Shown: positions 1,885 through 24,508, counted from the stretch's first letter. The stretch: DNA of 24,508 nt from a bacterium (GCA_965233585.1 CBDDTI010000411.1:1-24508); one strand, 5' to 3'. Notes: generated by a model from the sequence alone, not told the origin. Program-made: numbers and translations.

Positions 1885-2604
1885 ATGCCGAAATCTTACG
1901 TGTGTCCCGAATGCCAAAAATCATTTGACAGAAAATCTTCTCGCGACAAACATCATTTATTCCGTCATCGCGAAACTACAAAATCTCGAGCTCGGACCCC
2001 ACTCAATCAGTCGTTTCAATGCCCATTTTGTAAGAACGAAGTAAGTTCTTTTAAATCAAGAAAAGATTTAGTCTCACACATTGACGCTTCTCATTTAGAA
2101 AATTTAAATTATTCATTGTACAAATCCGCACTTAACGGAAAAATCAAATTTTATCGAAAACACATTTTTTCAAAAGAAACACTTCAAGGATTTGTTGCAA
2201 ATAAAAAAAATAGACAAGAAATAGTTGACGTTATTTGTCACGAACTAAGTAAAACTTTTACGGTTAAAGTTGCCCTTATTTTGACAGCGGCGTATCAAAT
2301 TCCTGATTTGAATTCCGCTGCAGAGAAGAAGGACATTGAACTAGATACTACCAATATTGATGATACCTCTGATAAACCTTCTGATCAGTCGTCGCCTCAA
2401 ATATTGTCCAATGATCGAGATGTTTTTGCTCTAAGAACCAGCTACATTCAATTCACGTCTTTTGATTCATCCCGCTCGTTAAAAGGCAAAGTCCAAAAAT
2501 TATTACATAATTTAGTAAATAGAGAAGAAGATTTGTTAATGAGAGGTTCTGGATGGAGATTTGAATCTTTATCTTTTAGCGATATTCAAATTACTAGCAT
2601 TTGA
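1885..2604 (+). CDS. C2H2 zinc-finger protein with a putative terminal-protein domain (normally the pPolB N-terminus)
   Basis: Two C2H2 fingers (CPEC...H...H; CPFC...H...H). The C-terminal RGSGWRFESLSFSDIQI resembles the GSGW motif of Polinton pPolB N-terminal regions. AATAAA follows the stop. Confidence 0.7.
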   Translation: MPKSYVCPECQKSFDRKSSRDKHHLFRHRETTKSRARTPLNQSFQCPFCKNEVSSFKSRKDLVSHIDASHLENLNYSLYKSALNGKIKFYRKHIFSKETLQGFVANKKNRQEIVDVICHELSKTFTVKVALILTAAYQIPDLNSAAEKKDIELDTTNIDDTSDKPSDQSSPQILSNDRDVFALRTSYIQFTSFDSSRSLKGKVQKLLHNLVNREEDLLMRGSGWRFESLSFSDIQITSI

Positions 2605-2656: not shown

Positions 2657-5600
2657 ATGGATTTTATAGAAATTCCACGTGATTTAAAGAGATCTAATTG
2701 CTTGGAATGGAAAACTCGTTACGATAAATTCAATTTTCTTTATCTGTACATTAGACATCTTTTTCCTGAGGAAACGGTTTCCGTTGTTGATTTTCGTCAA
2801 ATGCCGATAAAGTATCTTAAAAAGTTTAATATAAGAGGTTTCAAATTCCCTCTTCAATTTTGTAATTTAAAAAAATTCTTAAATAGAAACTCCCATTTAC
2901 CAATTTCAATTTCAGTTTTTTATGAGAGTGAAGGTCAAGTTTCAAAGTTAGGTTTTTTTACTAACAAAAACAACAACAGAAACAAAAACATTTTAAATTT
3001 GTTAATGATAAAATATGATCCTGAAATCTCTCTTGAAAATGAATCTCCATTTTCTCGCCTTGCAAAACCAATTCAACGCAAGAAAAAATCTTCTTGTAAA
3101 AAGATTGTCAATTGTAGTTCTAATGTCAAATTGGGTTTTTCTTCCAAGTTTAAAAAGATCAAGGATTTAAATCAACAGCACCATTTCTTTAAAATTACCA
3201 AAATCCAAGGTTTTTTGAATAATCGGGCCGGACTGTTGTCGGGTAAAAAAGCAGCTCAACAGAAGCACATCTATTGTGAAAAATGTCTGCTTCATTTTCG
3301 ATCCAAATCTAAAAAAGAAAAACACGAAAACACTTGCTGTGATAAACAACGTGCTATCTACCCAAGTAAAAATTCCTCCATAAGTTTTACCAATCATAAA
3401 CATAAATTTCATGCTCCTGTTGTTGGATTTTGTGATTTTGAATGTGTACTTCAAAGAAACAAAGAACGATCTAAATGTCAACTCTGTTTAAAAACTGAGT
3501 GTTTGTGTGCTTTTCCCACCAGTGACGATATAAACGTGCATAGACCAGTGGGGTATAGCTTGCTTTTTGTGGATTCGAATGATGAGGTATTTTTTCAAGA
3601 AGAATATGTAGGAGAGGATGCAGCCAAACATTTTTTGGATCGAATGCATTTCTATGAAAAAGTTGTTGACGAAAGAAAACAAAAATTCAGACATATTGTT
3701 AAAAATCAATCTAGTCCGCAAGAATGGCAAATGTATCAAAAAGCAAAAGTTTGTCATATTTGTGGTGGTCAATTCAAAAAGTACTCTAGAAATTACAGAA
3801 AAGTTCTAGATCATGATCACGTGACAGGGAAAATAATGGGCGCAGCTCATTCACTGTGTAACTTGACGAGATCCGGCCCCTTTCACACACCAATTTTTTT
3901 CCACAACGCTCAAGGGTAAGAAGTCTTAATTGGGTTTATTTATTAAACTAACACAAATTATGTACGCGTTTCAGATACGATTTGCATTTAATCGTGGAAG
4001 AGTTAAATGTTTCCAAATTTAAGCAAAATGTAAAAGTCTTAGCAAAAAACAGTGAAAAGTTTCGCACTCTTACATTGGGCAAATTTAAAATTCAAGATTC
4101 GTTAGAGCACATTTCTGGCAGTCTAGATGCACTTGTTCAAGATTTGAATCAGACCTCAAATTTTACCTTTCCCATTTTACAACAAATGGAAAGATATAAA
4201 AAAATTCCTGTTCGTCAAAAATCAAAAGCTTTAAAACTTTTAAAAAGAAAAGGCGTTTTTTGTTACGAACATTTCCAATCTTTAGAAGAGATGAAGAAAA
4301 GTCGAAACCTTCCGTCCAAAGACTCTTTTTATTCTGAATTAAACGAAGAACACATTACGGAAGCGGATTATTCCCATGCTCAAGAAGTCTTTAAATTGTT
4401 CAAATGCAAGAATGTGGTGGATTACATGATGCTCTATTGTTCTTTAGACGTTGTTTTGCTGTGTGAAGCATTTCTTCAGTACAGGAAAATGGTTATGGAA
4501 CATTTTCAATTGGATCCTGTTTATTATCTAGGTAAACTTTAATCTTTACTGTTGGATGTATCGTAATACTAAATTTGTTCTACCTAAATTAGGAATTCCT
4601 GGCTTGAGTTTTGATGTCATGCTTATGTTCTTTCAAAATTCAGAACAAGCTAAATCAGATAATAAGCTCACATCCGAATCTGAAACCTCCAAACCCCTCG
4701 GATCATTAGATGTCTATTCCGATCCTGAAATGGAGCGTTTTTTTACAAAGGGTATCAGAGGTGGGCAAAGTTTTATCGCTCAGCGTTATGCCAAAGGGAA
4801 TAGCAATCCTAGAAAAAGCGGCGATCACTTGTTATACATTGATGGTAATTTTATACTGTATTATCTGATGAAATCATTTTTGTTATGATCCATACAATTT
4901 TTCAGCCAACAACTTATACGGGAGTATGGAAACTTTAAAATTACCAGTTTCTGATTTCCAATGGGTTTCAAAAACAGAATTTAAAAATTGGACTGCCGAA
5001 GATATTATCAACATTCCTTCGCAAGACGATACTGGATATGCGTTCGAAGTTGATTTGCATTATCCTTCTCATCTTCACCAGGTAAATCCGATCTTTGTTG
5101 TGATACGTTATTTATTGTTTTGACAAGTTACATGATATCATTTTCAGGCACACGATCAATTTCCGCTGGCTCCGTATACAGACACGGTTTCTTTTAAACA
5201 TCTATCTCCTTACAATCGCCGTTTACTGAAACATCACTGTCCTCGAGATTATAGGAACAAAAGATACCGGAGCAAGAAATTGTTGAGCACTTTTTATGAC
5301 CGAAAAAAGTACGTGGTGCATCTGGAAAACCTGCAGTACTACTTGAAAAAGGGCATGAAGTTGCTGAAGATAAGAAGAGTCATGAAGTTTCGACAAAAAG
5401 CTTTTTTGAAGGAGTTCATCGAAAAGGTCACAAAGCTGCGATCAAATGCTCGCAATGACTTTGAACTCCGGCTTTTTAAACTTTTTGCCAACTCTACTTT
5501 TGGAAAATTTATTGGTGAGTTTTGAGATAAGATAATTTAATGATGTTGAGATTGTAAAAGACGCAAAAGCGTAATTTGACGCAGTCCATTTTTCTGTAAA

Positions 5601-8566
5601 AAATGAATTTGTTAAATACTCAAACGAATTTGGGGTCATTTTTTGTATTTTTTCTTTAATTTTGAGGCACAAGTGCGTGGTGGTACCGGCGACAGTTGCG
5701 GCAGTACGTCCTGCCGGCACCAACCACGCACTTAGCCTCATCAAAATCGTCATCTTCACCAATATCGGCTTCGTTGGCGGGGCTGACGTCGGCGGGGATG
5801 ACGTCGGCGGGGCTGACATCGGTGGGGATGACGTTGGCGGGGATGACGTCGGTGGGGATGACGTCCGGACGGACCGGCGACAAAGTCGGCGACGGAGGCG
5901 GCGGCCGTCCTGATCATCATGATCAAGCCTCTGGCAAGCCGTCTAAGACGGCCACCGCCCCACATCAGTGGTGGACGCGGCGGTGTCTCGCTCAATGGCG
6001 GGTCCGGCAGCAGCTTGAACCTCTCCTCCTCCTCCTCTTCCGTCCATTTCGCCCTCAACACCTCGTATTTCCCCCTCCTCATCCTTCCTAACTTTACCTT
6101 GTCCATTTTCCTTTTCCTTCTCCTTCTCCTCTTCCTTCTCTAAATTTGTTTTGAATTTTCCCGCATGGTTTTGTCAATTTTAGAAAATGAATCTCCAAAC
6201 CTTCACATATTAATTAGCAAATTATCTCATAAATATTCATAATATTAAATCAATATTAAATTAAAAATTCGCAAAATGAATTAATCAAGTACGCAAACTT
6301 TTGAAAAATCAATTTTTATAAAATGATGTGTTTATTTTGTAATCAAAAAGAAAAAGAAAAATGATCAAATTTAAATTTTAATTTTTTTTTGTAACTTTTC
6401 GAGCTGTAGACGGAGACCACACTGATGGAAATGCCGTTACTTGACGCACTTCTGGTGTTGGTGAAGGTTCCACGTGAGTATAGGGTTGTGGTTTAGATTT
6501 TTGTGTTGATTGTGAAGACAAATCAAAAGACACGCGATGAGAGGTCTGCTTTCGTGACTCCGACTCCGGCCTTTGTGGGACGGATTTGTACGGGGTTCGT
6601 GATGGCCAAGCAGGTGCTACGGGTCGCTCGGAAGATGCCCATGATTCTCCACCCAAAGCCGCAGAAGATGACCATGCTCCTCCAGTTTTAGTAGATGACC
6701 ATGCCCCCTCAGTTTTAGCTGATGACCATGCTCCTCCGCCCACAGCCCCAGAAGATGTCCATGCTCCTCCGGTTTTAGTGGATGACCATGCTCCCCCGCC
6801 CCCAGCCCCGGTAGTAGATGCGCTCTTCCACGACTCCGACCCTGATTTTTGCGGGACGGATTTGTACGGGGTCCGTGATGGCCAAGCAGGTGCCACGGGA
6901 CGTTCGGAAGATGCCCATGATCCCCCACCCAAGGCCGCAGAAGATGACCATGCTCCCGCAGTTTTAGTAGATGACCATGCCCCCTCATTTTTAGCAGATG
7001 ACCATGCTCCTCCGCCCACAGCCCCAGAAGATGACCATGCTCCTCCGGTTTTAGTGGATGACCATGCTCCCCCACTCCCGGCTCCGACAGTAGATGCACT
7101 CTTCCATGACTCCCGCTCTGATTTTTGTGGGACGGACTTGTACGGGGTCCGTGATGGCCAAGCAGGTGCCACGGGACGTTCGGAAGATGACCATGATTCC
7201 CCACCCAAGGCCGCAGAAGATGACCATGCTCCTCCGGTTTTAGTGGATGACCATGCTCCTCCGCCCCCGACCCCGGCAGTAGATGCGCTCTTCCACGACT
7301 CCGACCCTGATTTTTGTGGGACGGACTTGTACGGGGTCCGTGATGGCCAAGCAGGTGCCACGGGACGCTCGGAAGATGTCCATGATCCTCCACCCGCAGC
7401 CCCAGAAGATGACCATGCTCCCTCAGTTTTTGTAGATGACCATGCTCCCCCAGCCGCAGCCCCGGTAGAGCTACTGCCAGAAGTCGGACTTGAAGTTGCC
7501 TCCTCCTTGGCTGATTCTATTACTTTTAACCAAAAAGCTTTGCTCTTTTCCTGATCTTTTTTATCCATTTTGACTTAGTGTTTATTTTGTTGGAATTTTT
7601 GATGTCCGTTTATGTCGGGCTTTAAAAAAGGAATGATTTCAAATTGAAGTAAATTATAGTACATTGCTAATTACAGAGGAAAGTGAAATGTGATATGGGA
7701 CGGCTAGTTAGCTGAGGTGATTGCGCACATAATCAATTTTCTTTATTAAATAAATCTTATTTTGCATTTCAGAAAATGTTCGAAATTACTCTGAAGTGGT
7801 CCTTTGTGGTGATGAACAGAGCTTAAGGAAAGCCAGTCTTGGTCAACACATCAACAGTTTTCAAATCATCAATGAAAACTTGGTGGCTGTCAACAAGAAG
7901 CCGGCAATAATAGAGCTCAGGAAGCCTTTAGCTGTTGGATTTTCTATTTTGGAATTGTCCAAGTTGTTTATGTACAGATCGTATTATGACACGATTCAAC
8001 AACATTTTGGCGAAAAAAATGTGTCTTTATGTTTCTCAGACACGGATTCTTTTCTTTTAAAAGTAAGATGCAACAACTTGGAAAGGGAAATGAAAAAATT
8101 AGAGCACATATTTGATTTTTCAAAGTACCCCAAACAACATCCTCTTTTCGATGACAGTAGAGCCAATCAGCTTTTTTATTTTAAAGACGAACTAAAAGGC
8201 AGAGCTGCTATTACTCACTTTATAGGCTTACGTCCAAAATGTTATTCTATGAAAATTACTGATTTTTCAGACAAAAACAAAACAGAAGAAAAGAAAATTT
8301 GCAAAGGTTTAAAAAAATCTAGCATAAAAAAGCAATTAACCTATAACGATTACAAAAAATGTCTAAAACGTGCTGTTCTAATTTACAAATCTTTCAAAAA
8401 CTTAAGATCAAAGAATCATAAAATTCGGACATGTTTTCAAAGAAAGATTGCGTTATCAGCAATGGATTCCAAAAGACACATTTTGAATTGCGGATATCAC
8501 ACTTTATCACTAGGAAATTGTCTTATTGTCAACAACAAATCATCTAAATGCCCTATTTGTAAATAA
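2657..8566 (+). CDS. polB: Protein-primed family B DNA polymerase, 6 exons: 2657-3915, 3975-4531, 4593-4844, 4906-5081, 5148-5514, 7773-8566 (3405 nt, 1134 aa)
   Basis: Splicing rebuilds ExoII HNAQG/YDLHL, DPVYYLG/IPGLSFD, motif A YIDA/NNLYG, YPSHLHQ/AHDQFPLAP and motif B KLFANSTFGKFIE/NVR. Also present: ExoI DFE, ExoIII YCSLDV, motif C SDTDS, LRPKCY, KGL, and an endonuclease VII-like insert CHIC...DHDH...AHSLCN. Confidence 0.93.
3916..3974 (+). other. pPolB intron 1 (59 nt)
   Basis: GTAAG...CTAAC branch-like...TTTCAG; removal gives GG+A TAC GAT (G-Y-D) in frame. Confidence 0.93.
4532..4592 (+). other. pPolB intron 2 (61 nt)
   Basis: GTAAAC...ATTAG; removal gives YYLG-IPGLSF in frame. Confidence 0.88.
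4845..4905 (+). other. pPolB intron 3 (61 nt)
   Basis: GTAATT...TTTTCAG; removal restores catalytic motif A, D-A-N-N-L-Y-G. Confidence 0.93.
5082..5147 (+). other. pPolB intron 4 (66 nt)
   Basis: CAG|GTAAAT...TTTTCAG|GCA; removal restores LHQAHDQFPLAP. Confidence 0.92.
5756..6106 (-). CDS. Arg-rich, protamine/core-like ORF nested in intron 5 (frame uncertain, possibly a pseudogene)
   Basis: 116-aa ORF with RHPHR/RQPR repeats and MWGG|G. An in-frame upstream ATG at 6166 is cut off by TAG at 6142-6140, followed by RRKRRRRRKRK. TATAAAA at 6320-6314. Other frames are also partly open. Confidence 0.35.
   Translation of the reverse strand: MDKVKLGRMRRGKYEVLRAKWTEEEEEERFKLLPDPPLSETPPRPPLMWGGGRLRRLARGLIMMIRTAAASVADFVAGPSGRHPHRRHPRQRHPHRCQPRRRHPRRRQPRQRSRYW
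5772..5861. repeat. Six copies of a 15-bp GC-rich tandem repeat (CGTCGGCGGGGATGA consensus)
   Basis: Directly visible, with 0-2 substitutions per unit. Confidence 0.9.
6378..7568 (-). CDS. 396-aa Ser/Gly/Trp-rich repeat protein nested antisense in intron 5
   Basis: GTCAAA-ATG start, unique N- and C-termini, many GGAWSS units and four copies of ERPVAPAWPSRTPYKSVPQ. AATAAA on the minus strand at 6336-6331 follows the stop. Confidence 0.7.
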   Translation of the reverse strand: MDKKDQEKSKAFWLKVIESAKEEATSSPTSGSSSTGAAAGGAWSSTKTEGAWSSSGAAGGGSWTSSERPVAPAWPSRTPYKSVPQKSGSESWKSASTAGVGGGGAWSSTKTGGAWSSSAALGGESWSSSERPVAPAWPSRTPYKSVPQKSERESWKSASTVGAGSGGAWSSTKTGGAWSSSGAVGGGAWSSAKNEGAWSSTKTAGAWSSSAALGGGSWASSERPVAPAWPSRTPYKSVPQKSGSESWKSASTTGAGGGGAWSSTKTGGAWTSSGAVGGGAWSSAKTEGAWSSTKTGGAWSSSAALGGESWASSERPVAPAWPSRTPYKSVPQRPESESRKQTSHRVSFDLSSQSTQKSKPQPYTHVEPSPTPEVRQVTAFPSVWSPSTARKVTKKN

Positions 8567-8629: not shown

Positions 8630-9324
8630 ATGGATGGTTTTGATTTAAGGTTCAGTATTCCTTCCAACATGTTAATTGTTGGCCCAACATCGAGTGGAAA
8701 AACAACGTGGCTTAAACATTTAGTGGTTGGTAGGCATGAATATTTTGCAACTCCGCCAGAAACAATGTTGTTGTTCTACAAAGAACCACAAAAAGCTTAT
8801 GAATACATGGAAGATGATATGAATCGAGACAAACGTTCAAACTCTCGTTTTCCAACATTTCGTAAATTTAAAAGTATTCCAAATTCGATTGAAGAACTAA
8901 AAGATATTTTGGAATCATATCCAAGAAAAATGCCCAAATTAGTTGTTTTTGATGATTATTTAGACGATGTTGGACAAATATTAAAACATTTTTTTACGGT
9001 TTTGACTCATCACTACAATTGTTTCACCGTTTTTCTGTGTCAAAATTTATTTGATAAAAAAGGTGATTTGCGGACATTAAGCATAAACACTCAGTACATG
9101 GTTCTTTTTAACAATCCTCGGGACAGAAGTGCGGTTGCGCATTTGGCTAAACAAATTTTCCCGGACGAGTCGGAATTTTAAATAAAGCATATAGGGAAGC
9201 TGTTAACGGTCGAAGTCATGGATATCTCCTTCTAGATTTCCATCAACAACAAGACGATAAAGTCAGAATTCGAAGCAACATTTTTCCGTACGAGGGTCTG
9301 ATGAAAGCTTACGTTACCGTTTAA
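8630..9324 (+). CDS. A32/FtsK-HerA family DNA packaging ATPase with a -1 frameshift near 9178
   Basis: Walker A GPTSSGKTT, Walker B VVFDD, HHYN..VFLCQN and RTLSIN. The conserved C-terminus (KAYREA...GYLLLD...RIRSNIFP) continues in the -1 frame to TAA at 9322-9324. Confidence 0.88.
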
Positions 9325-9372
9325 AGGATTTTCATATCTATTTAAGAAAAATAAAAAATTGCAACTGTCAAA

Positions 9373-11224: not shown

Positions 11225-11707
11225 TTAACATTTATTTTCAATTTTTTTTATAAAGTGAGTTACAATTTTATCGTTTTCTGATTTGGGATTTTTTACAAAT
11301 AATTTAACAAATTGTTGAGGGGTCATTAAATTGTTGCCCACGGATAAACAAAATGCGCACGTGTACCATCCACAAAACAAAGAACGGAAACTCTGAATTG
11401 AGTGAGATAAGATAATTTTGAAGGAGTTTTTCTCTATCCAGGGTCGTAAAAACTTCATCAAACATTTGTTCCATATCGGTGGTAAAAAACCGAAAGAATC
11501 AAAATAATAGAGTTGATTTTTCTTGTTAATGTACATTGCTACGAAATGAGATCCTTCTTGATTTCTTTTGGATAAGTTAGCGATCAGGCAGCAAGGCAAT
11601 GAAAGCGGATCAGATGGCAAGTCGTCGACCGAAAATACCCCGATGAAATTCTTACATCTGGGTCGAATGTAATTGTTTAAAAAGATATTTGATAACCCAC
11701 CCTCCAT
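11225..11707 (-). CDS. Adenain-like cysteine protease (capsid maturation)
   Basis: FIGVFSVD, GSHFVA (His), YFDSFG (Asp) and IQS...FCGWY (Gln, Cys). Confidence 0.92.
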   Translation of the reverse strand: MEGGLSNIFLNNYIRPRCKNFIGVFSVDDLPSDPLSLPCCLIANLSKRNQEGSHFVAMYINKKNQLYYFDSFGFLPPIWNKCLMKFLRPWIEKNSFKIILSHSIQSFRSLFCGWYTCAFCLSVGNNLMTPQQFVKLFVKNPKSENDKIVTHFIKKIENKC

Positions 11708-11710
11708 ATT

Positions 11711-13060
11711 TTAATTGGTTCCTTTTATGACTTGTTGAAATTGATCTATTTTAATACCGGAGTTAAAAATAGATAAGGCCAGAACGTATATTGGATGGGG
11801 AGTGATTTGGGAAAAAGCCAACTCTAAATCTAAATTTCCATAATTTTCTGGATGAGTGTGGTACGAATTACATTGATCTGGTGTCAAGTCGGCCGCCAGA
11901 AAAAATCTTCCATTTATAAAAGCATCATACGTCAAGCCAATGGACTGATTGCCGTGCGAAATGCCTATACTGTCGTATAAATGTCGATACAAATCAACAA
12001 CGTCCCCCTCCTCAATATTAGGTTGAAAAGGTTTGGGAAATACGCATTGCCCGTTCTTTTTTAAATTAAACGAGGAAAGATTAAAGTGTTGAAAATTAAA
12101 AGGATTTTTGTCGGGAGCATGCGACATAGCCTGATTGTGAACCATCACAAAAAACACTTGTTTGGGTAATGTTCCATTAGCAATATTAGCGATGTTAAAA
12201 GACGACACGCCTTGAGGAATAACGTAATGTCTTAAACGTGTAGAGCTAAAAGGCAGGTAGCACGGTTCTTTTAAAAGTTTGTTTTTGAAACTTTCTCGTA
12301 TTATCAACGTAGGCAACACTTTTCTCATATGCAATTTGACATCTTTTAACACAATTTTGAAAGGTTTTGCTGCTGCAGGATCTTGAAGCAAACCAAATGT
12401 TTCAGCCGATCTAACCAATTTTATCTTGATATCCACATTTGGTGGTAAGAATCGATCAGTGTCAAACAGATCAACAGCTATACGCGAGTTAAAAAATACT
12501 TTTTTCCCGTTTAAAATCAAATTCTTTCTTTTTGTCAAAGAATTAGAGGAAACTTCTTCGGTAATTTTGGTGGTGGTAACTTCGTCTATAGTTTCGGGAT
12601 AATATCCTTCAGCAGCCAGATAAGTGTCTTTTACGTCAATATTGTAACTTAAATATGATTGTAAAAACATTCTCCAGGGGTAGGTGACCGCCGAACTTAA
12701 ATCAGCTACTTGAACACCGTTCAAATACACTTCTACTTGACTGAATAAACAAGCAGCAAAATGATTTACCAACGCGGTTTTACTTGCCTCCGTGACAAAG
12801 CCGCCGTCATCATTTGTCACTACAAAATGCCCACTGAGTCTGGTTTGACTCAGTATAAAAGAACACTCGTTGTCGCGAGGAACAAGAAATTCTACCGGAC
12901 CGGTGTTGGTGATAGAAGCCACGCTATTGTAAATAACGTGAGCCCCTTCCAATAGACCCGTTTCCACTTCTAAGGGTGCGTGAAGCGCTAAACCACTTTC
13001 TGTGCCATCGTTTTGTTCCACGGCCAATCCAGCAATTCCGCTTTTATCAGGCAAGCCCAT
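11711..13060 (-). CDS. Major capsid protein (double jelly-roll, hexon-like), 449 aa from ATG 13060
   Basis: Polinton MCP-like motifs GPVEF, LFSQVEVYLNG, FLPPNVDIKIKL, LPKQVF, NPFNFQHF, DLTPD and GNLDLEL. Confidence 0.88.
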   Translation of the reverse strand: MGLPDKSGIAGLAVEQNDGTESGLALHAPLEVETGLLEGAHVIYNSVASITNTGPVEFLVPRDNECSFILSQTRLSGHFVVTNDDGGFVTEASKTALVNHFAACLFSQVEVYLNGVQVADLSSAVTYPWRMFLQSYLSYNIDVKDTYLAAEGYYPETIDEVTTTKITEEVSSNSLTKRKNLILNGKKVFFNSRIAVDLFDTDRFLPPNVDIKIKLVRSAETFGLLQDPAAAKPFKIVLKDVKLHMRKVLPTLIIRESFKNKLLKEPCYLPFSSTRLRHYVIPQGVSSFNIANIANGTLPKQVFFVMVHNQAMSHAPDKNPFNFQHFNLSSFNLKKNGQCVFPKPFQPNIEEGDVVDLYRHLYDSIGISHGNQSIGLTYDAFINGRFFLAADLTPDQCNSYHTHPENYGNLDLELAFSQITPHPIYVLALSIFNSGIKIDQFQQVIKGTN

Positions 13061-13067
13061 ATCAAAG

Positions 13068-13610
13068 ATGGAAGTGATGGTCAGCAATGTTAAAATCAGT
13101 TGCAAAATTCGTCTCATCGACAGTGACAAAATTTCTTTTAATACCGATAATGTACTAAAACATTATAATAATTTTACTGTTGTTAAAAAAAAATATTCTT
13201 TTATTGTGTTTACTAAAACAAAGCAAAATCGAAATTTCCACGTAAATATTACTAAAATCCCTTCCACAGAGCATATACCAAAAGCATTAGACGAATTAAA
13301 ACTTGTTATAAGTAGTAAATTTATTACTGAAAAGTTTAAAATAGAAAACATGACTTGTTTGTGTCATATGTCATCAAAAATCAATTTATTAACATTTTAC
13401 AACAATTTGAAATTAAATGTAGATTTTGAAATTATCCAAAAGAGATACGACTCTGAGAAATTTCCTGGAATGTTTTTAACATTAAAAAAGTGTTCTGCTT
13501 TAATATTTTCGTCTGGAAAAATAGTAATAATTGGAGCTTCCTGCGAAAAAGACGCTACACAAGGAATAAAAATTATTTCTGAATTGCTGAAAAAATATAA
13601 AACTGAATAA
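13068..13610 (+). CDS. TBP: TATA-binding protein homolog (180 aa, core only)
   Basis: Second repeat FKIENMT...YDSEKFPGMF...ALIFSSGKIVIIGA closely matches the TBP signature. First repeat VSNVK...YNNF...FIVF...VNITK is diverged. Confidence 0.9.
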   Translation: MEVMVSNVKISCKIRLIDSDKISFNTDNVLKHYNNFTVVKKKYSFIVFTKTKQNRNFHVNITKIPSTEHIPKALDELKLVISSKFITEKFKIENMTCLCHMSSKINLLTFYNNLKLNVDFEIIQKRYDSEKFPGMFLTLKKCSALIFSSGKIVIIGASCEKDATQGIKIISELLKKYKTE

Positions 13611-13716: not shown

Positions 13717-14436
13717 ATGTGCATTCATCAATATATAATAGAAGACACCAGACAAGGAGACGTAGTGTGCACCGAGTGTGGTTTAGTTATTGATAAAATA
13801 TATTGTGATCCAAATTTAGAAACAAAATGGGAAAAAATAAAAAATTTAAATGAAGAATTTGAACAAAACAGCGAACATTTAAAGAAGGAAAAAAATATTT
13901 TAAAAAATTTATGTAATAAATTACATTTAAATAATGATGTTACAAACACTATTTTTAACTTGTGGTCAGAAATAGTAGCGTGGCATTATCAAAAAAATGG
14001 AAAAATTAAAATTAATCCAAAAGGCTTAATTGCTATGGCATTGTATCAAAGTTTAATAGAGGAAAAAATTCCCCGCCCAATAAGTCACTTGTGTCAGGAA
14101 ATTGGTATTAGCCCAAAAACGGTATGGCGATGGATAAAATTATACAGACAAGATTCGACCAACACAATTAAAACAGAAAATTCTATAAAAGCAAAAGATA
14201 TGGCAGAATATTTTTTACAGCCTCTACAGTTAAATTATCAAGAGATGACAACTATAAAAGAAAAACTAAATAAAAATGAAAATAGTTCTTTTGCTCCTAG
14301 GACTTTATTAGCAGCATGTGCTTATGCCTTTTTAAAAGAAACAAGAGCACTATATCCGAGCGTCAAAAATACAGCTCGTATTTTAGGCGTCAGTGTTATG
14401 TCTTTATACAGATGTCTTAAAAGTCTAGAGCAATAA
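13717..14436 (+). CDS. TFIIB: Transcription initiation factor TFIIB homolog (239 aa)
   Basis: N-terminal Zn ribbon CIH...EDTRQGDVVCTECGLVI, then two cyclin-like repeats (LCNKLHL...AMALY...IPRPISHL; APRTLLAACAY...TARILGVS). Confidence 0.9.
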   Translation: MCIHQYIIEDTRQGDVVCTECGLVIDKIYCDPNLETKWEKIKNLNEEFEQNSEHLKKEKNILKNLCNKLHLNNDVTNTIFNLWSEIVAWHYQKNGKIKINPKGLIAMALYQSLIEEKIPRPISHLCQEIGISPKTVWRWIKLYRQDSTNTIKTENSIKAKDMAEYFLQPLQLNYQEMTTIKEKLNKNENSSFAPRTLLAACAYAFLKETRALYPSVKNTARILGVSVMSLYRCLKSLEQ

Positions 14437-14852: not shown

Positions 14853-15935
14853 ATGACAACAAAAGAGATTTTTTTAAAAGAATATGCAAGACCAGGCTCA
14901 CCAATAGCTTTTGCATCTCCTGCGTTGATTTATTATTATTATGGAAAAAAAATTCCTTTAACGACAATTGAAGAATGGTTAAAGGGAACTGATTCTTACA
15001 CACTTCATAAACAACCAAAATTACCTAAACCTAGAAATCCAACATTTGCTTATCATAAGAGATATCAATTTCAAATTGATCTTATAGATTTAGGAAATTT
15101 GATCGAAGAAAATGACGGGAATAGATACCTTCTAACAGCTATTGATATTTTTACACGATTCGCGTTTGTAGAACCCTTAAAAAATAAAACAGCAAAAACT
15201 TTTATGGAGGGATTTGAGTCTATTATGAAAAGAGCAAAAAAGTTTCCTCGTAGAATTTTAGCTGATAAAGGTGCAGAAATAAAGAATAAATTGTTTCAAG
15301 CCTACTGCAAAAACAATAACATTCTTCTATTACACAGCAACAATTTTGTGCACGCCCCTTTTGTGGAAAGATTTAACCGAACTTTAAAAAATCTGATGTT
15401 TAAATACATGACTCACGAAAATACAGATAGGTACATCGATGCATTACCTTTTCTTGTTCATACCTACAACCATCGTAAACATCGTATGATTGGAATGTCA
15501 CCCGCTGAAGCCGAGCTCCCCGGTCGGACTTATTTTATTAGAAGAAAACAGGAATTGCATTATTCAAAGTTTAAGAGAAAAAGACCAAAATACAAAATTG
15601 GTCAAACCGTGCGCATTAGCATAATGAAGGGAAAATTTGACAGAGGTTTTACACAACAATTTAAGGAAGAAATTTTTAAAATAAAATCAATTTTTACTCG
15701 TTTGCCTAAACCTACTTATGAATTGGAAACTTTAGAACAGGATGAAACTCTGGAAGGAAATTTTTATGAGAGTGAACTTACTCCCGTGAATGAGCCAGAA
15801 TTATTTATGATTGAAAAAATTTTACGAACAAAAAAAGATAAAAAAACAGGTGAAAAAATGGTTTTGGTGAAATGGAAAGGGTATAAAAACCCCAGTTGGA
15901 CATATGAGAAAGATGTAGTTGATGTGTCACAATAA
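14853..15935 (+). CDS. int: Retroviral-like (rve) DDE integrase with C-terminal chromodomain
   Basis: YTLHK, QIDLID (D), IDIFTRFA, ADKGAE (D), VERFNRTLK (E), YNHRKHRMIGMSP and chromodomain LVKWKGY...SW. Confidence 0.95.
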   Translation: MTTKEIFLKEYARPGSPIAFASPALIYYYYGKKIPLTTIEEWLKGTDSYTLHKQPKLPKPRNPTFAYHKRYQFQIDLIDLGNLIEENDGNRYLLTAIDIFTRFAFVEPLKNKTAKTFMEGFESIMKRAKKFPRRILADKGAEIKNKLFQAYCKNNNILLLHSNNFVHAPFVERFNRTLKNLMFKYMTHENTDRYIDALPFLVHTYNHRKHRMIGMSPAEAELPGRTYFIRRKQELHYSKFKRKRPKYKIGQTVRISIMKGKFDRGFTQQFKEEIFKIKSIFTRLPKPTYELETLEQDETLEGNFYESELTPVNEPELFMIEKILRTKKDKKTGEKMVLVKWKGYKNPSWTYEKDVVDVSQ

Positions 15936-19085: not shown

Positions 19086-19381
19086 TCTTGATAATTGAAA
19101 CGGTTGAAAACGACTGTGAGTTGAATTTTTAACAGGATTGGATGAAAACTTTGATACGCGCGATCAAATTTTTGTCTTATCAGAAACAACTTTGGAAATT
19201 CTTCTTTTTAAAATTTAGAGTTTGAAAAATTACATTTGAGCGGGTTTGGAGCAAAAAGGACGGAATTTTTAAACATTTTTCATTCTTAGAACCTTTCTTT
19301 GCGCTTTTAAATCGAGAACAATTTGACAATGGAGAAAAATAGATGTTGCAACAAGCCTGTAACCGACTTGTTTTCGTCTGC

Positions 19382-19669
19382 AATCGGCTTGCAACAGGCT
19401 CGATTGAGCCTGTAATCGGCTTGCAACAGGCTCGATTGAGCCTGTAATCGGCTTGCAACAGGCTCGATTGAGCCTGTAATCGGCTTGCAACAGGCTCGAT
19501 TGAGCCTGTAATCGGCTTGCAACAGGCTCGATTGAGCCTGTAATCGGCTTGCAACAGGCTCGATTGAGCCTGTAATCGGCTTGCAACAGGCTCGATTGAG
19601 CCTGTAATCGGCTTGCAACAGGCTCGATTGAGCCTGTAATCGGCTTGCAACAGGCTCGATTGAGCCTGT
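19382..19669. repeat. Nine perfect copies of a 32-bp unit (AATCGGCTTGCAACAGGCTCGATTGAGCCTGT) with an internal hairpin
   Basis: Period 32. Each unit holds ACAGGCTC-GATT-GAGCCTGT. An inverted copy of about 60 bp from 19361-19420 lies at 19703-19762. Confidence 0.95.
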
Positions 19670-19926
19670 TGCAAATTGCAGACGAAAACAGGCCGGTTGC
19701 AGGCCGATTACAGGCTCGATTGAGCCTGTTGCAAGCCGATTGCAGACGAAAACAAGCCGGTTGCAGGCCGATTACAGACGAAAACAGGCTCGATTGAGCC
19801 TGCAACAGGCTCAATGTAGATGCCATCAAGGTGGTTTGAGAGCGCTTTAAGATGGTTTTCATGCGTAAACGGATGGTTAAAAGCCCGTTTTAGACTGTTT
19901 TAAGGTGTTTTGAGAGTGTTTTGAGA

Positions 19927-19978
19927 AGAAATGTGCCTACATCAAGCTCGAAAGAGCCTGATGTAGGTACATTTCTCT
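19927..19978. other. Terminal hairpin (23-bp stem, GAAA loop) and putative right terminus
   Basis: AGAAATGTGCCTACATCAAGCTC-GAAA-GAGCCTGATGTAGGTACATTTCT pairs at 21 of 23 positions (plus one G.T and one mismatch), followed by terminal CT. Confidence 0.75.
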
Positions 19979-22139
19979 ATAACAACCTTTTCCTTTCTTT
20001 CTGCAGGAGCTGGAATCGTGTGGGCCGGTCTTTTCTGACGGGGGTGCCTCGGGTGCTTCAATGGCTGGCCGGGATGCTGCTATAAGCTTGCACCTCTGAA
20101 GGGTCGGAGCAGTCGTAGGCTGTAAGATGGTAACGGGCTTCCACGGTGCCATACCCATTCCGGAGGGTGAAACGGTCGGCGGAGAGAACGGAGAGGAGTC
20201 CTATCAGGGATCCTAGAGTGGTGCTCCGATGGATGCGGCTGGTGGAGGAGGTGATGACTAGTCCCAGGAGGAGAACACAGAGGTTGGCTCGGAGACCCAT
20301 GTCGGCCCGGTAGGATGGTATAAGTGTAGTCGTTGTAGAATCCGGAGCGGGCAGCAGTGGGGTACTTGGGAACGGCGACTCGGGTAGGATCGTGACGGTA
20401 ACAATCGCCCAGGGCGAGGCTGGAGTGTGGTCTGATCCTTGCGGGGTCCTCAGCACCCGTTCTTGTGTCTCCCAACTTGATTTCAATCGGCAAAACAGAG
20501 TCGTTCCTTTCCACCACGAGAGGTCAGTCACTGTGAGATCTCGGTGAGGAGAGAACAGACGAATCGATTTGTAGAAGAGAGAACTTACAAGGTCGTTTTG
20601 TTCGGATGTTACAGCGACAACAAGGTTCAAGTCACGACAATTGGGCCAATGAGACATAAAGGTGGCAACACAATTCCGATCGTGGCGAGCATGCCACAGC
20701 CAGGGTCCACGGGGAAACCACAAGATCCCTATCTCGTCACATCTGGTTCTGCCTCTTCTCTCTCCTAATCTTGGGGCGCCTAAGGGCATCACTGCTCTCC
20801 TCCAGGCGTCTCGTTCTGAGCATCGGACCTCGGGCCTGGAGTGGAGATCGATGAGGATGGACTCCTCACACTCTCTTTTCCACTCTGCTGTACAGGATTG
20901 ATTTACCCTTCTAATGGGGATCACTCTCTTCCCTCCTGTGTGGCAGAGAGCGGCCACGGTCACTTCGTCGTATGTGGCGGTGTCCACATCGTCCCATGGT
21001 TCATGCCCGGCGCCGGCAGAATCCTCATCTTCCCCAATAGCAGCCACCAGCTGTCGTTGGCCAGAGCTCTCGCCCACGAGGGGCAGGACGTTGGTGGCCT
21101 CGGCGAACCTCACTTCCCTCGGACCATTCACGGTCGCCCGAGATGATGGATACCGCGCGGGTAACCCTTCACTAAATGGAGCAGCACAAGTCCACACAAT
21201 TAACAAGCCCACGAGGCAAGGGTGGTTCGTTCCCGGAGCATTGAGACGAAACTCACACTTGGGGCAACAGTACACAAGGCGGAATTGGTTCCTCTCCGGA
21301 GTATTCGGACCAGGATCACAGTGGAGGTAACAGTACATTGAAATCACTCTCATTTCATTATCATCTACTGCCAGATTGCATGAAGCCGCGGCTGTATTCT
21401 GGATATGCCCACTTGTCAAGTGGGAGCACAAGATTATAAGTACAACACTGGGACACAGAATTGAAGTCACAAACGTAAGGGTCTCTTGGGTGATTTGATC
21501 TTTGGCACTTGGCGAAGGAATAGGGACTCCGGAGCCGCTGGAGGGTGCATCTTTCATCTCCCTGGGTAGGCGGGTTCCTTGTATCGATTCCGTGGATTCG
21601 AAGAGTCCTCCCCGTCCACAGGGGTGATCTGCGTGGGGATCGTTGTCCGCCCGGAGCCAAGGGGTGTGAGCGCGACATCCTCCCCGGAGAATCACCAACG
21701 GAAGGCCCTCTCTCTCTGTAGAGCTCCGCAGACCGTGGGCTCTGTAGTTTTGAGGCACTAGCGGCATTGGACTCCAGGCTGTGTCGAGGTGTCGTGAGTG
21801 GGAACCGATGGTGTAACAGTCCTGTGTGGTAGGCGGAGCAAGGAGTTGAGGACTACCTCCGGCTTTCAGAGGAGAATTTTGAACTAGCGGGGCCGCTCCC
21901 CCTAGAGGCACCTTCGCATCGATAATCAGGGGATCACGCCCGCAGGCAGCCCAGGCACCCACCCTTTGACAGGGCATTCGGAGAAGGGGAGTAACTCGAG
22001 CTCTTACATGCGCTTCTTCCCATGTCCTCCGGGACGTCCGACGAGGGCAGAATCCGGGGAGGCCGGCAGCGAGCGGCCGCGGGCAGGGGCACAATGGTGA
22101 CCTGCGTACAGCCCCGCGGGGTGGAGGAATGGGGTCCAT
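19979..22139 (-). pseudogene. Degraded env/viral glycoprotein-like reading frame of a GC-rich element, truncated at the Polinton junction
   Basis: Hydrophobic segments precede LTAYDCSDP...H*STRG...FQLLQKERKR, with an in-frame TGA where a Cys is expected. This resembles the YDC...C...QLLQ N-terminus of chuvirus-like/retroelement glycoproteins. The upstream part of the ORF is not recognisable. Confidence 0.45.
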
Positions 22140-24508
22140 TCCTTAGCGTTACCCCACAGCACCGGCCTTTTCTCGGGATGAAGACACCATCCCAGACGCG
22201 CCGGGGTTTTGAGCATCAGCCTTCCTAGGTCCTCCATTCTTCTTGAGAGGGCTAGGCCGTGCCTCTCTCGTAAGGGGAGGCGGTCATTGACGGTCGGCTG
22301 GGTTTTCAGGGCGGCAATTGCCGTTGGTAAATCATGCTCCGGGGGACGGGTCCGGTGGGGAAAAGGACAGTAGGGATGGACCCCCCTATCTACTGTCCTG
22401 ACTGAAAATCCAGCCCGTCGCTCCTGTGGCTGGGTCCGGCCCGGAGGTGGGGCGGCATGTCACTAGCGGACGACCCCGGGGACAAGGGTTGTGGAGGTGT
22501 GCGAACAAGGTTCTGCAAGTCCTCAGCACTGGGTTGGGGTCGACCTCGGAGGATGGAGCGCACTCTGGAGTAGAGGGTTTCTCTCCGGACTTCTTCTGAG
22601 GTGGAGGGCAGGGCAATGTCCTCCCATTGTCCGCGAGAGGTCTCCATCCGGACCACGCTGCCGGCATTCCACGGGGCAAGCGGACGAGCTATTGGGGTCA
22701 TGATTCCTCATTTAGCGCGGGGTTTCAGGAGACTCCTCCTTCTCCCGCTAGGTCCGCGTAGGTGGCGGGGTGCGCGGAGAAGTCCTTCCTCCCGCATACG
22801 GATCCTGATCAAGTCGTCTAGTAATTGGAACCGCTCCTCATAAGCGTCCAGCATTTCGGAGCAACTCCTTGGTCCGGCAAGAGTGATGTCCCGGACGGCA
22901 TCATGGGCGGAGTCCCGCATGCACGCGTTGGCGTACCGTCGGGCGGTGCGGTCAGGCCACCGTTCATGCTCGTGAAGGGTGTTTTATCCTTGGGGTGGCG
23001 CCTGTGGGATGGTTGTTTGACCTCTCTGTGAATATCCTCCAATATGGTGACCTGTTAATAAACCTCCATATTGACCTCCCTTTAAACCCCCCCATAAGGT
23101 GAATCCAATTTGTTCTTTGTTATTTTATTCAGCCCATGTTGATGGTAGTAATAAGGCATATACAAGAACTACATGACTTCACTATATGAGTACACACACA
23201 AGAATGACAAGTACACAATAAAACTAAAGGTCTTCACATGATGACTATACTTAAGAGAGTGATGGTAACTGTTGCTTTGATCTTTAATGTTGATTCTTTT
23301 CTAGGTGGAGAGGTGTGGCTTGGTTCTTTGTTCCCTGGTGTGTGTTGTTGATGACCTTGCAGTTGGCTCTAACCCATTTGCTTGGCTGGTCCAATCTAAT
23401 TGCTTGGCTGGTTCAATCTAACAGTTCTTTTACCTCTCAAGTTAACTGTATCCAGGGGAATGAACCAAAGTGTTGTCTGGCTTGTACATAACAAAGGAAC
23501 ACAAGGAACACAGGCAGGTCATCTGCCTCTTGACATATTTTAATAATCATTGATAAATATACATAATGGCAAGAGCCGGATATGAAGCATCACCCCCCTG
23601 CTAGAAAGCAGTAGAGATGAAAAGGGGAGGTTTTTTTATAAGCTGGAAAAATGATTGGGGACACTGCTTATCGATGTTGACTGGTGATTGGTTTTTGTAA
23701 TTAGTGCCGATGTGACTGCTTGGTGGGTTGGGATGGCTGACATGATGTTGTTGGCCTACAATGGTCGAAGGGCTGAGCCACCTTTTTTTGGGATAGGGCT
23801 TTCCTGAAAATTGAATAATAAATAAGTGGGGGAACACAACTTTGAATACCATGGTCAATGATTAAACAATATACACAAGTTCTAATTTGAAAAAGGTACA
23901 AATATGATCATAGATTGAAACTTATCTTTGTGGATGGATTGATGGTGTTCACATCTCTATGATTGACAGATAGTTGTTGAGCTCATGTGGCAGGGTCTTT
24001 GAGCAGGTTGCATCTCAATTGACAGAAATGAAGCAGCTGATTTGGATGAAAAAGTGCAGCGAAGTTGAATCTGGTTTAGACAGCTCCTTTGAATGAAGTG
24101 ACTCTCCCTCTAATTGGTGGTTGCTTGTGTCTTTGGATGGAAATGAAGTGAATGTTATGGGTGCTGAAGATGTTGCAGCATCAAGATGGAATTGGGTTTA
24201 GATTGCCTCTTTGCCTGTAGTAATCTTTCCTCTAATTGATGAATGTTGGTGTCTTTGGATGAAGGCAAGAAACCAGTGTTTTCAGTTGGTCAGCGGTGAT
24301 TATTTTTTGAAGCTTTGTGTGGACGCTGAAAACAGGTGGAGAGATGGCAGGAGGAGAGCTTTGAAGTAAAACATGTTTGCTTTGGTTGTGTGAACCGTTG
24401 GTTGAGAAAAAACGCGGGCGCGATTGTTTTTTTTTGTGTTGAATATGGGGAGTTGAAGTTAATCCAGGTGATGTTGCTTCTTCACAAAAAACGTGGACGT
24501 TGATGCAG

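Follow-up and report, generated by a model that had tools for sequence, protein, structure and literature searches.

Evidence for five conserved spliceosomal-type introns in the polymerase gene of an animal-type Maverick/Polinton element

Adenoviruses, nuclear double-stranded DNA relatives of the Maverick/Polinton elements, have a protein-primed family-B DNA polymerase and produce their replication-gene mRNAs through host splicing, within a different genome organisation; the catalytic motifs of adenovirus pol are not known to be interrupted within its coding region. Polinton genes are usually described as intronless or intron-poor, as a preliminary description of the present locus had stated, and the available text of three sources bears this out. 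Intact vertebrate Mavericks have intronless open reading frames (ORFs), in agreement with Kapitonov and Jurka 2006 (PMC8097293), the core genes of nematode Mavericks are intronless while their GC-rich cargo has introns (bioRxiv 10.1101/2022.07.12.499685), and endogenous viruses ‘do not contain introns’, a statement that serves to justify prokaryotic gene callers (PMC10120064). Here we analyse a 24,508-nt stretch of DNA (GCA_965233585.1 CBDDTI010000411.1:1-24508; the window, with coordinates counted from its start) that very probably holds most of an animal-type Maverick/Polinton whose protein-primed polymerase gene, pPolB, has five U2-type spliceosomal introns, spliced by the host and shared by a clade of relatives. 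The case is carried by the anatomy of the locus, its colinearity with intronless homologues, and the presence of the same junctions in relatives. Five conserved host-type introns in a Maverick polymerase are unusual, as these elements are normally described and searched as intron-free, and among the passages covered by our search of the literature on Polinton/Maverick introns, none describes conserved introns of spliceosomal type in the polymerase of a Polinton.

The locus resembles animal Mavericks/Polintons in its protein-primed polymerase and its rve integrase, to which a chromodomain is joined here, and it has candidates for three further genes of such elements in an A32/FtsK-like ATPase ORF, an adenain-like ORF and a capsid-like ORF whose look-alikes contain a double-jelly-roll domain. 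It differs from the vertebrate and nematode elements, whose core genes are intronless in the accounts available, in its five polymerase introns, a separate N-terminal ORF and the lack of terminal inverted repeats (TIRs) in the window. Nematode Mavericks also combine GC-rich, poorly conserved blocks with an AT-rich core in the available text of bioRxiv 10.1101/2022.07.12.499685, but here the GC-rich blocks lie inside a polymerase intron. Spliceosomal-type intervening sequences in integrated elements are described for dinoflagellate Maverick-Polinton-like proviruses that bear introners (PMC11957031, in the part available), whereas the short introns described here are mutually unrelated and their positions are common to diverged relatives. 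Intron-containing Penelope-like retroelements are likewise reported to retain spliceosomal introns within a mobile element, but are retroelements with unrelated enzymes.

On the plus strand, six open segments in differing frames lie between 2657 and 8566 and join into 3405 nt, equal to 1134 codons and a stop (Table 1). The joined frame starts at an ATG, contains no internal stop, and is open only once five GT..AG intervals have been removed; recomputing the join and its translation reproduced every segment coordinate, interval length and the 1134-amino-acid (aa) frame of the preliminary description. Stops occur in the incoming frame of all five introns, and the length of four is not a multiple of three. 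All five have U2-type GT-AG ends, with donors GTAAGA, GTAAAC, GTAATT, GTAAAT and GTGAGT and with TTTCAG as the acceptor in four cases and AATTAG in one, and the GC content of the short introns (59-66 nt) is 23-29%. In a chance control, a GT..AG pair lay no more than 6 nt from an arbitrary pair of positions at ~4% of places in the window, and the product over five junctions is 1.2e-7 for GT..AG and 1.4e-13 for GTRA..YAG.

The product is a protein-primed family-B polymerase by its Pfam match to PF03175 (DNA_pol_B_2; E 6e-6 on exon 5, at the cut-off), its hundreds of homologues, and the Exo and Pol motifs in its translations. An HNH/Endonuclease-VII-like domain (PF02945, E 8.8e-6) occupies exon 1 residues 352-407 (window 3710-3880) between ExoI and ExoII; several homologues also carry PF02945, and some carry PF03175. 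We named the motifs by what we take to be the usual pattern of protein-primed PolB enzymes. In the translations, intron 1 splits ExoII between FFHNAQG and YD, intron 3 splits motif A between LLYID and ANNLYG, and motif B, KLFANSTFGKFI, ends one split codon before intron 5, whereas ExoI (CDFEC), ExoIII (YCSLD) and motif C (SDTDS) are each uninterrupted within exons. These positions confirm an earlier remark that introns fall in or next to ExoII, motif A and motif B. The motif set Exo I-III and Pol A-C is named in the part of PMC10748475 available.

To this anatomy we add comparison with homologues. Exon searches of protein collections returned 120 proteins for exon 6, the best 150 of 2322 for exon 1, 43 for exon 5 and 77 for exon 2; the matches and 17 cluster members came to 406 proteins in total, all of which were compared with the window by tblastn. 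Uninterrupted homologues are those of 1100-1300 aa, and the net indel was scored wherever two abutting matches of a homologue lie across a junction. At junction 1 the net indel is 0 in 134 of 149 homologues, the others showing -6 (one), -2 (two), -1 (nine), +3 (two) and +8 (one); it is likewise 0 in 32/37 at junction 2, 39/43 at junction 3 and 149/152 at junction 5. Junction 4 is bridged by a single match in 171 homologues, in which the gap takes up 18-22 of the intron's 22 codons. In one homologue (P0002, 1295 aa), the residues that meet across junctions are 592 and 594, 783 and 782, 847 and 844, and 1025 and 1026. Spliced alignment to homologues, which had been proposed as a check on the joined frame, thus gives a net indel of zero for most comparisons by far, at all five junctions.

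The same junctions recur in relatives of the window's gene. In the protein collections, relatives at 40-99% identity occur solely as ORF fragments the size of an exon; no uninterrupted relative exceeds ~47% identity for exon 5 or ~41% for exon 6, and all closer ones are such fragments, including the 77 relatives of exon 2, which are of about exon size. Among the matches listed for exon 1, P0121, P0122, P0123, P0125, P0127, P0136, P0270 and P0271 (40-62% identity) end exactly at 3916, because the phase-2 sequence GG/GTAA reads as a stop. Across the 406 proteins, ORFs end within 3 residues of a donor 14 times at donor 1 (3915), 24 times at donor 2, 5 times at donor 3 (P0383, P0391 and P0392 end at this intron 3 donor) and 15 times at donor 5, and fragments start within 10 residues of an acceptor 69 times at acceptor 1 and 12 times at acceptor 4. 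Read-through tails past the donors are AT-rich and unrelated, whereas the exons are conserved. At the intron 5 donor, 22 of the 30 relatives with at least 50% identity to exon 5 continue from ..FGKFI with G and then K, N, E or R, or with a stop, as a G/GT(A/G).. donor would encode. The two nearest relatives, P0287 (99%) and P0288 (96%), end at the same stop as the window, just inside intron 5. Of the rest of the 30, one reads IVKK, six do not reach the junction in frame, and P0312 runs straight into exon 6.

Precise absence of introns accompanies this conserved position, as judged from protein fragments rather than DNA. P0312, and likewise the shorter P0327, reads FGKFIENVRKY.. into exon 6, which is the predicted splice product with intron 5 exactly absent. 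Intron 4 is exactly absent in seven relatives (P0298, P0299, P0301, P0303, P0304, P0305 and P0307), while six others (P0297, P0302, P0308, P0313, P0318 and P0320) read in frame through a stop-free intron 4 copy of their own; in relatives that retain intron 4, the head preceding exon 5 ends in Q, as encoded by a CAG acceptor. Intron 2 is absent in P0383, P0394 and P0400, all of which stop at or near donor 3. On these sequence patterns, we consider the introns to be real, of spliceosomal type, and conserved in the lineage.

We built an exon-5 tree of 42 rows and 121 columns from the window, 29 relatives (50% identity or more, with 85 or more aligned residues) and the 12 best homologues with a length of 1100 aa or more; P0327 was too short for inclusion. 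The 30 intron-bearing rows stand apart from the 12 uninterrupted homologues with weak support (75/90), and the minimum number of changes is three for intron 4 and two for intron 5. Because the base of the clade is weakly supported, gain and loss of introns are not separable on this tree. Two proteins have layouts which indicate that some relatives are rearranged: P0001 (488 aa) matches exon 6 over its first 228 residues only, its remaining 260 having no counterpart in the window, and in P0324 an exon-5-like piece is fused to a short minus-strand match at 14334-14402.

The class of the introns was examined separately. None of the four short introns is a copy of another, their mean column identity being 61% in a gapped, AT-rich alignment, and an Rfam scan of the full window yielded nothing at gathering scores. 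Self-splicing group I or II introns were considered and rejected, as the window has no Rfam match to them and four of the intervals measure just 59-66 nt. The mutual unrelatedness of the short introns and the lack of Rfam matches together give them an ordinary spliceosomal appearance, unlike that of introners or self-splicing introns. When adjacent ORFs were scanned blindly for short GT-AG introns that would join them, introns 2, 3 and 4 were recovered and no further case emerged in the gene block from 8.6 to 18.5 kb; the other candidates were confined to GC-rich sequence, within intron 5 and at 20-21.6 kb. The capsid, protease, integrase, TBP and TFIIB genes had been described as free of introns, and no short GT-AG intron is needed across 8.6-18.5 kb. 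A tRNA scan of the window returned no genes.

Under the reading we favor, transcripts of the polymerase gene would be made in the nucleus, and the host spliceosome would process them to yield the 1134-aa polymerase. As elements of this kind replicate as DNA, introns once acquired would be inherited by all descendant copies, giving intron positions common to the whole clade, from some members of which introns 2, 4 and 5 appear to be precisely missing. Intron 5, at a conserved site, would have been enlarged to 2.26 kb by two GC-rich repeat blocks with opposite-strand ORFs. We infer splicing, the continued expression of the window copy and the time at which each intron arose from these sequence features.

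Conserved introns of this kind would indicate that the lineage has long expressed its replication gene in the nucleus and through splicing, and their positions provide markers for dating and tracing it. They also bear on how such elements are surveyed. Prokaryotic-style ORF callers are common in surveys of endogenous Mavericks/Polintons and related viruses, on the ground that introns are lacking (PMC10120064, in the part available). With ORF calling, or with the practice of treating ‘introns’ as damage (PMC8097293, in the part available), a clade such as this one would be scored as broken or missed. The expectation that ORF-based surveys miscall the gene is realized in the protein collections, where the relatives above ~50% identity are all exon-sized fragments.

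Intron 5 differs from its neighbors in composition and content, with two GC-rich blocks set in AT-rich sequence (Table 1). The block with the 396-aa minus-strand ORF is also open on the plus strand over 6541-7554, most of its length, and codon-position GC does not discriminate the coding strand of 6378-7570, because both open frames share their wobble position. Both GC-rich blocks have ORFs open on either strand. Neither nested ORF block has a Pfam family, and the 396-aa ORF has no usable look-alike in the Atlas. No convincing inverted repeats or transposon-like ends bound the intron, and against the remaining window it gives only 14-16-nt matches by blastn and none by tblastx. Its donor GTGAGT and acceptor TTTGCATTTCAG are intact. 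The sequence is consistent with a conserved, old, short intron swollen by foreign-looking GC-rich DNA, possibly with nested genes.

Several observations weigh against five host-spliced introns in a working Maverick gene. A minority of homologues have non-zero indels at junctions 1, 2, 3 and 5 (15/149, 5/37, 4/43 and 3/152, respectively), and because intron sharing is read from the ends of ORF fragments, single cases could be frameshift mimics. Intron 5 is ~35 times longer than its neighbors and contains AATAAA-like strings and long ORFs, so that the window copy might splice poorly. No terminal inverted repeats connect the left side of the window with its right side, and near 9150-9185 there seems to be a shift in the ATPase frame. 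The copy may be truncated or decaying, and the element ends may lie outside the window or have been lost. These last points bear on the most serious rival, which accepts the introns of the family but holds that the window's own polymerase gene is dead, a decaying fossil in which the intron 5 insert causes mis-splicing or premature termination. The 2258 nt of intron 5 against 59-66 nt for the others, its foreign-looking GC-rich repeats and ORFs, the absence of TIRs and the seemingly disrupted ATPase frame (judged by a C-terminal motif that Pfam does not support) all fit such a copy. However, the six exons are without stops or frameshifts, both splice sites of intron 5 are intact, an intronic insertion need not damage a gene, and P0287 and P0288 share the stop just inside intron 5. 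We therefore regard a dead copy as unlikely, while giving it real weight.

The remaining rivals concern the origin of the intervals or of the gene. In the available text of PMC11957031, introners, which are intron-generating transposons, are reported from dinoflagellates, in ~25% of the integrated elements of Maverick-Polinton-like and giant-virus type, and the five intervals could be introners or other small mobile elements. This is improbable here, given that the four short introns are not mutual copies, that intron 5 lacks bounding inverted repeats and is unlike the remaining window, and that the positions are common to relatives down to ~40-60% protein identity, which indicates that the introns are old rather than recent insertions. 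Domestication of the polymerase as a host gene, with host-like intron gain and element genes beside it by chance, would account for multiple introns and a split-off N-terminal domain, both of which resemble host-gene evolution. It is nonetheless very improbable, as a full element set adjoins the gene (ATPase, protease-like ORF, capsid-like ORF and integrase) and the family is multi-copy, with exon 2 alone yielding 77 clusters at 90% identity, several of them with 10-36 members. Least credible of all is a pseudogene with random insertions whose GT..AG ends are coincidental, although GeneWise ‘introns’ in vertebrate Mavericks are treated as insertions in degraded copies in the available text of PMC8097293. 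A chance of ~1e-7 for five GT..AG pairs, zero net indel at the junctions, and the same junctions in dozens of diverged relatives, whose exons but not read-through tails are conserved, bring this explanation close to refuted.

Beyond the host-spliced polymerase gene itself, we tentatively raise a broader proposal, which we think is more doubtful than not: that the window belongs to a clade of animal Mavericks with a ‘eukaryotised’ replication gene, in which at least five conserved introns running through catalytic motifs, a split-off N-terminal gene, an intron-free virion module, and TBP- and TFIIB-like genes of its own would hint at two expression regimes. If this is true, host-spliced replication functions would be set against element-directed transcription of structural genes, and the precise absence of introns 2, 4 and 5 would reflect intron loss via spliced transcripts, an indirect proof of splicing.

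Table 1. Coordinates of the polymerase gene, its introns and the other features of the window.
Feature	Position	Strand	Details
Zinc-finger ORF	1885..2604	+	239 aa, C2H2; Pfam zf-Di19/zf-C2H2, below cut-off
pPolB exon 1	2657..3915	+	ExoI, HNH/Endonuclease-VII-like domain, first half of ExoII; ends in phase 2
Intron 1	3916..3974	+	59 nt, GTAAGA..TTTCAG; inside ExoII
pPolB exon 2	3975..4531	+	ExoIII YCSLD
Intron 2	4532..4592	+	61 nt, GTAAAC..AATTAG
pPolB exon 3	4593..4844	+	ends within motif A (..LLYID)
Intron 3	4845..4905	+	61 nt, GTAATT..TTTCAG; inside motif A
pPolB exon 4	4906..5081	+	from ANNLYG.. onwards
Intron 4	5082..5147	+	66 nt, phase 0, GTAAAT..TTTCAG; two in-frame stops in window copy
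pPolB exon 5	5148..5514	+	Pfam DNA_pol_B_2; motif B KLFANSTFGKF at 3' end
Intron 5	5515..7772	+	2258 nt, GTGAGT..TTTCAG
Intron 5 composition	5515-5659		GC 0.28
Intron 5 composition	5660-6140		GC 0.60, 15-nt repeats
Intron 5 composition	6141-6377		GC 0.20
Intron 5 composition	6378-7570		GC 0.55, 276-nt repeats
Intron 5 composition	7571-7772		GC 0.31
Second nested ORF block	5656..6106	-	two overlapping frames, 5756-6106 (from ATG) and 5656-5913; 15-nt tandem repeats 5772-5865
Nested 396-aa ORF	6378..7568	-	ATG to stop; low-complexity, built on 276-nt tandem repeats
pPolB exon 6	7773..8566	+	motif C SDTDS, then KCY, then stop
A32/FtsK-like packaging ATPase ORF	8630-9181		Pox_A32 E 4.4e-4, below cut-off
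Adenain-like protease ORF	11225-11707	-	Peptidase_C5 E 0.0064, below cut-off; weak
Capsid-like ORF	11711-13129	-	449-472 aa; Atlas look-alikes with DJR-like_dom
TBP-domain ORF	13002-13610		E 1.2e-16, one repeat matched
TFIIB zinc-ribbon ORF	13717-14436		33 bits against a cut-off of 29
rve integrase with C-terminal chromodomain	14853-15935		PF00665 E 2.5e-9, above cut-off; PF00385 E 3.5e-5, just below cut-off

The genes around the polymerase point to an animal-type Maverick/Polinton that is adintovirus-like, and the retroviral-type integrase of such elements is present (PF00665). The Atlas clusters nearest to the capsid-like ORF (score 0.98) have DJR-like_dom in 15-24% of members and come mostly from Arthropoda and Echinodermata; the host of the element is probably an invertebrate. 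The ATPase ORF stops at 9181, and a 58-codon open frame at 9151-9327 lies in another frame. The C-terminus of this second frame resembles what we take to be a typical ATPase ending, for which Pfam gives only a chance-level, unconfirmed match. A figure legend in PMC8502044, a source available in part, lists a TBP-like gene in related viruses, and our literature search combining Polinton, TATA-binding protein and TFIIB found no paper.

The zinc-finger ORF upstream of pPolB appears to be a detached part of the polymerase. In 31 of the 406 homologues, the N-terminal ~200 residues align to this ORF, colinear with exon 1. The ORF ends in a stop at 2602-2604, with no GT donor before it, and a 52-nt spacer separates it from the pPolB ATG. 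Close relatives likewise start at the ATG at 2657, which, together with the separate ORF, indicates that the N-terminal domain is an ORF of its own in this clade. The arrangement looks like a gene fission common to close relatives, and given that the N-terminal domain is separate, the 1134-aa frame would not be the whole ancestral polymerase.

Repeats lie toward both sides of the window. A 107-nt tandem repeat of 2.9 copies occupies 477-782, left of the element genes, and at 19291-19810 a 32-nt unit is repeated in tandem ~9 times at 99% identity, with an inverted partner array. Beyond it, at 19900-23000, come ~3 kb at 53-62% GC whose ORFs lie in several frames and match nothing in Pfam; this sequence may be host flank or another element.

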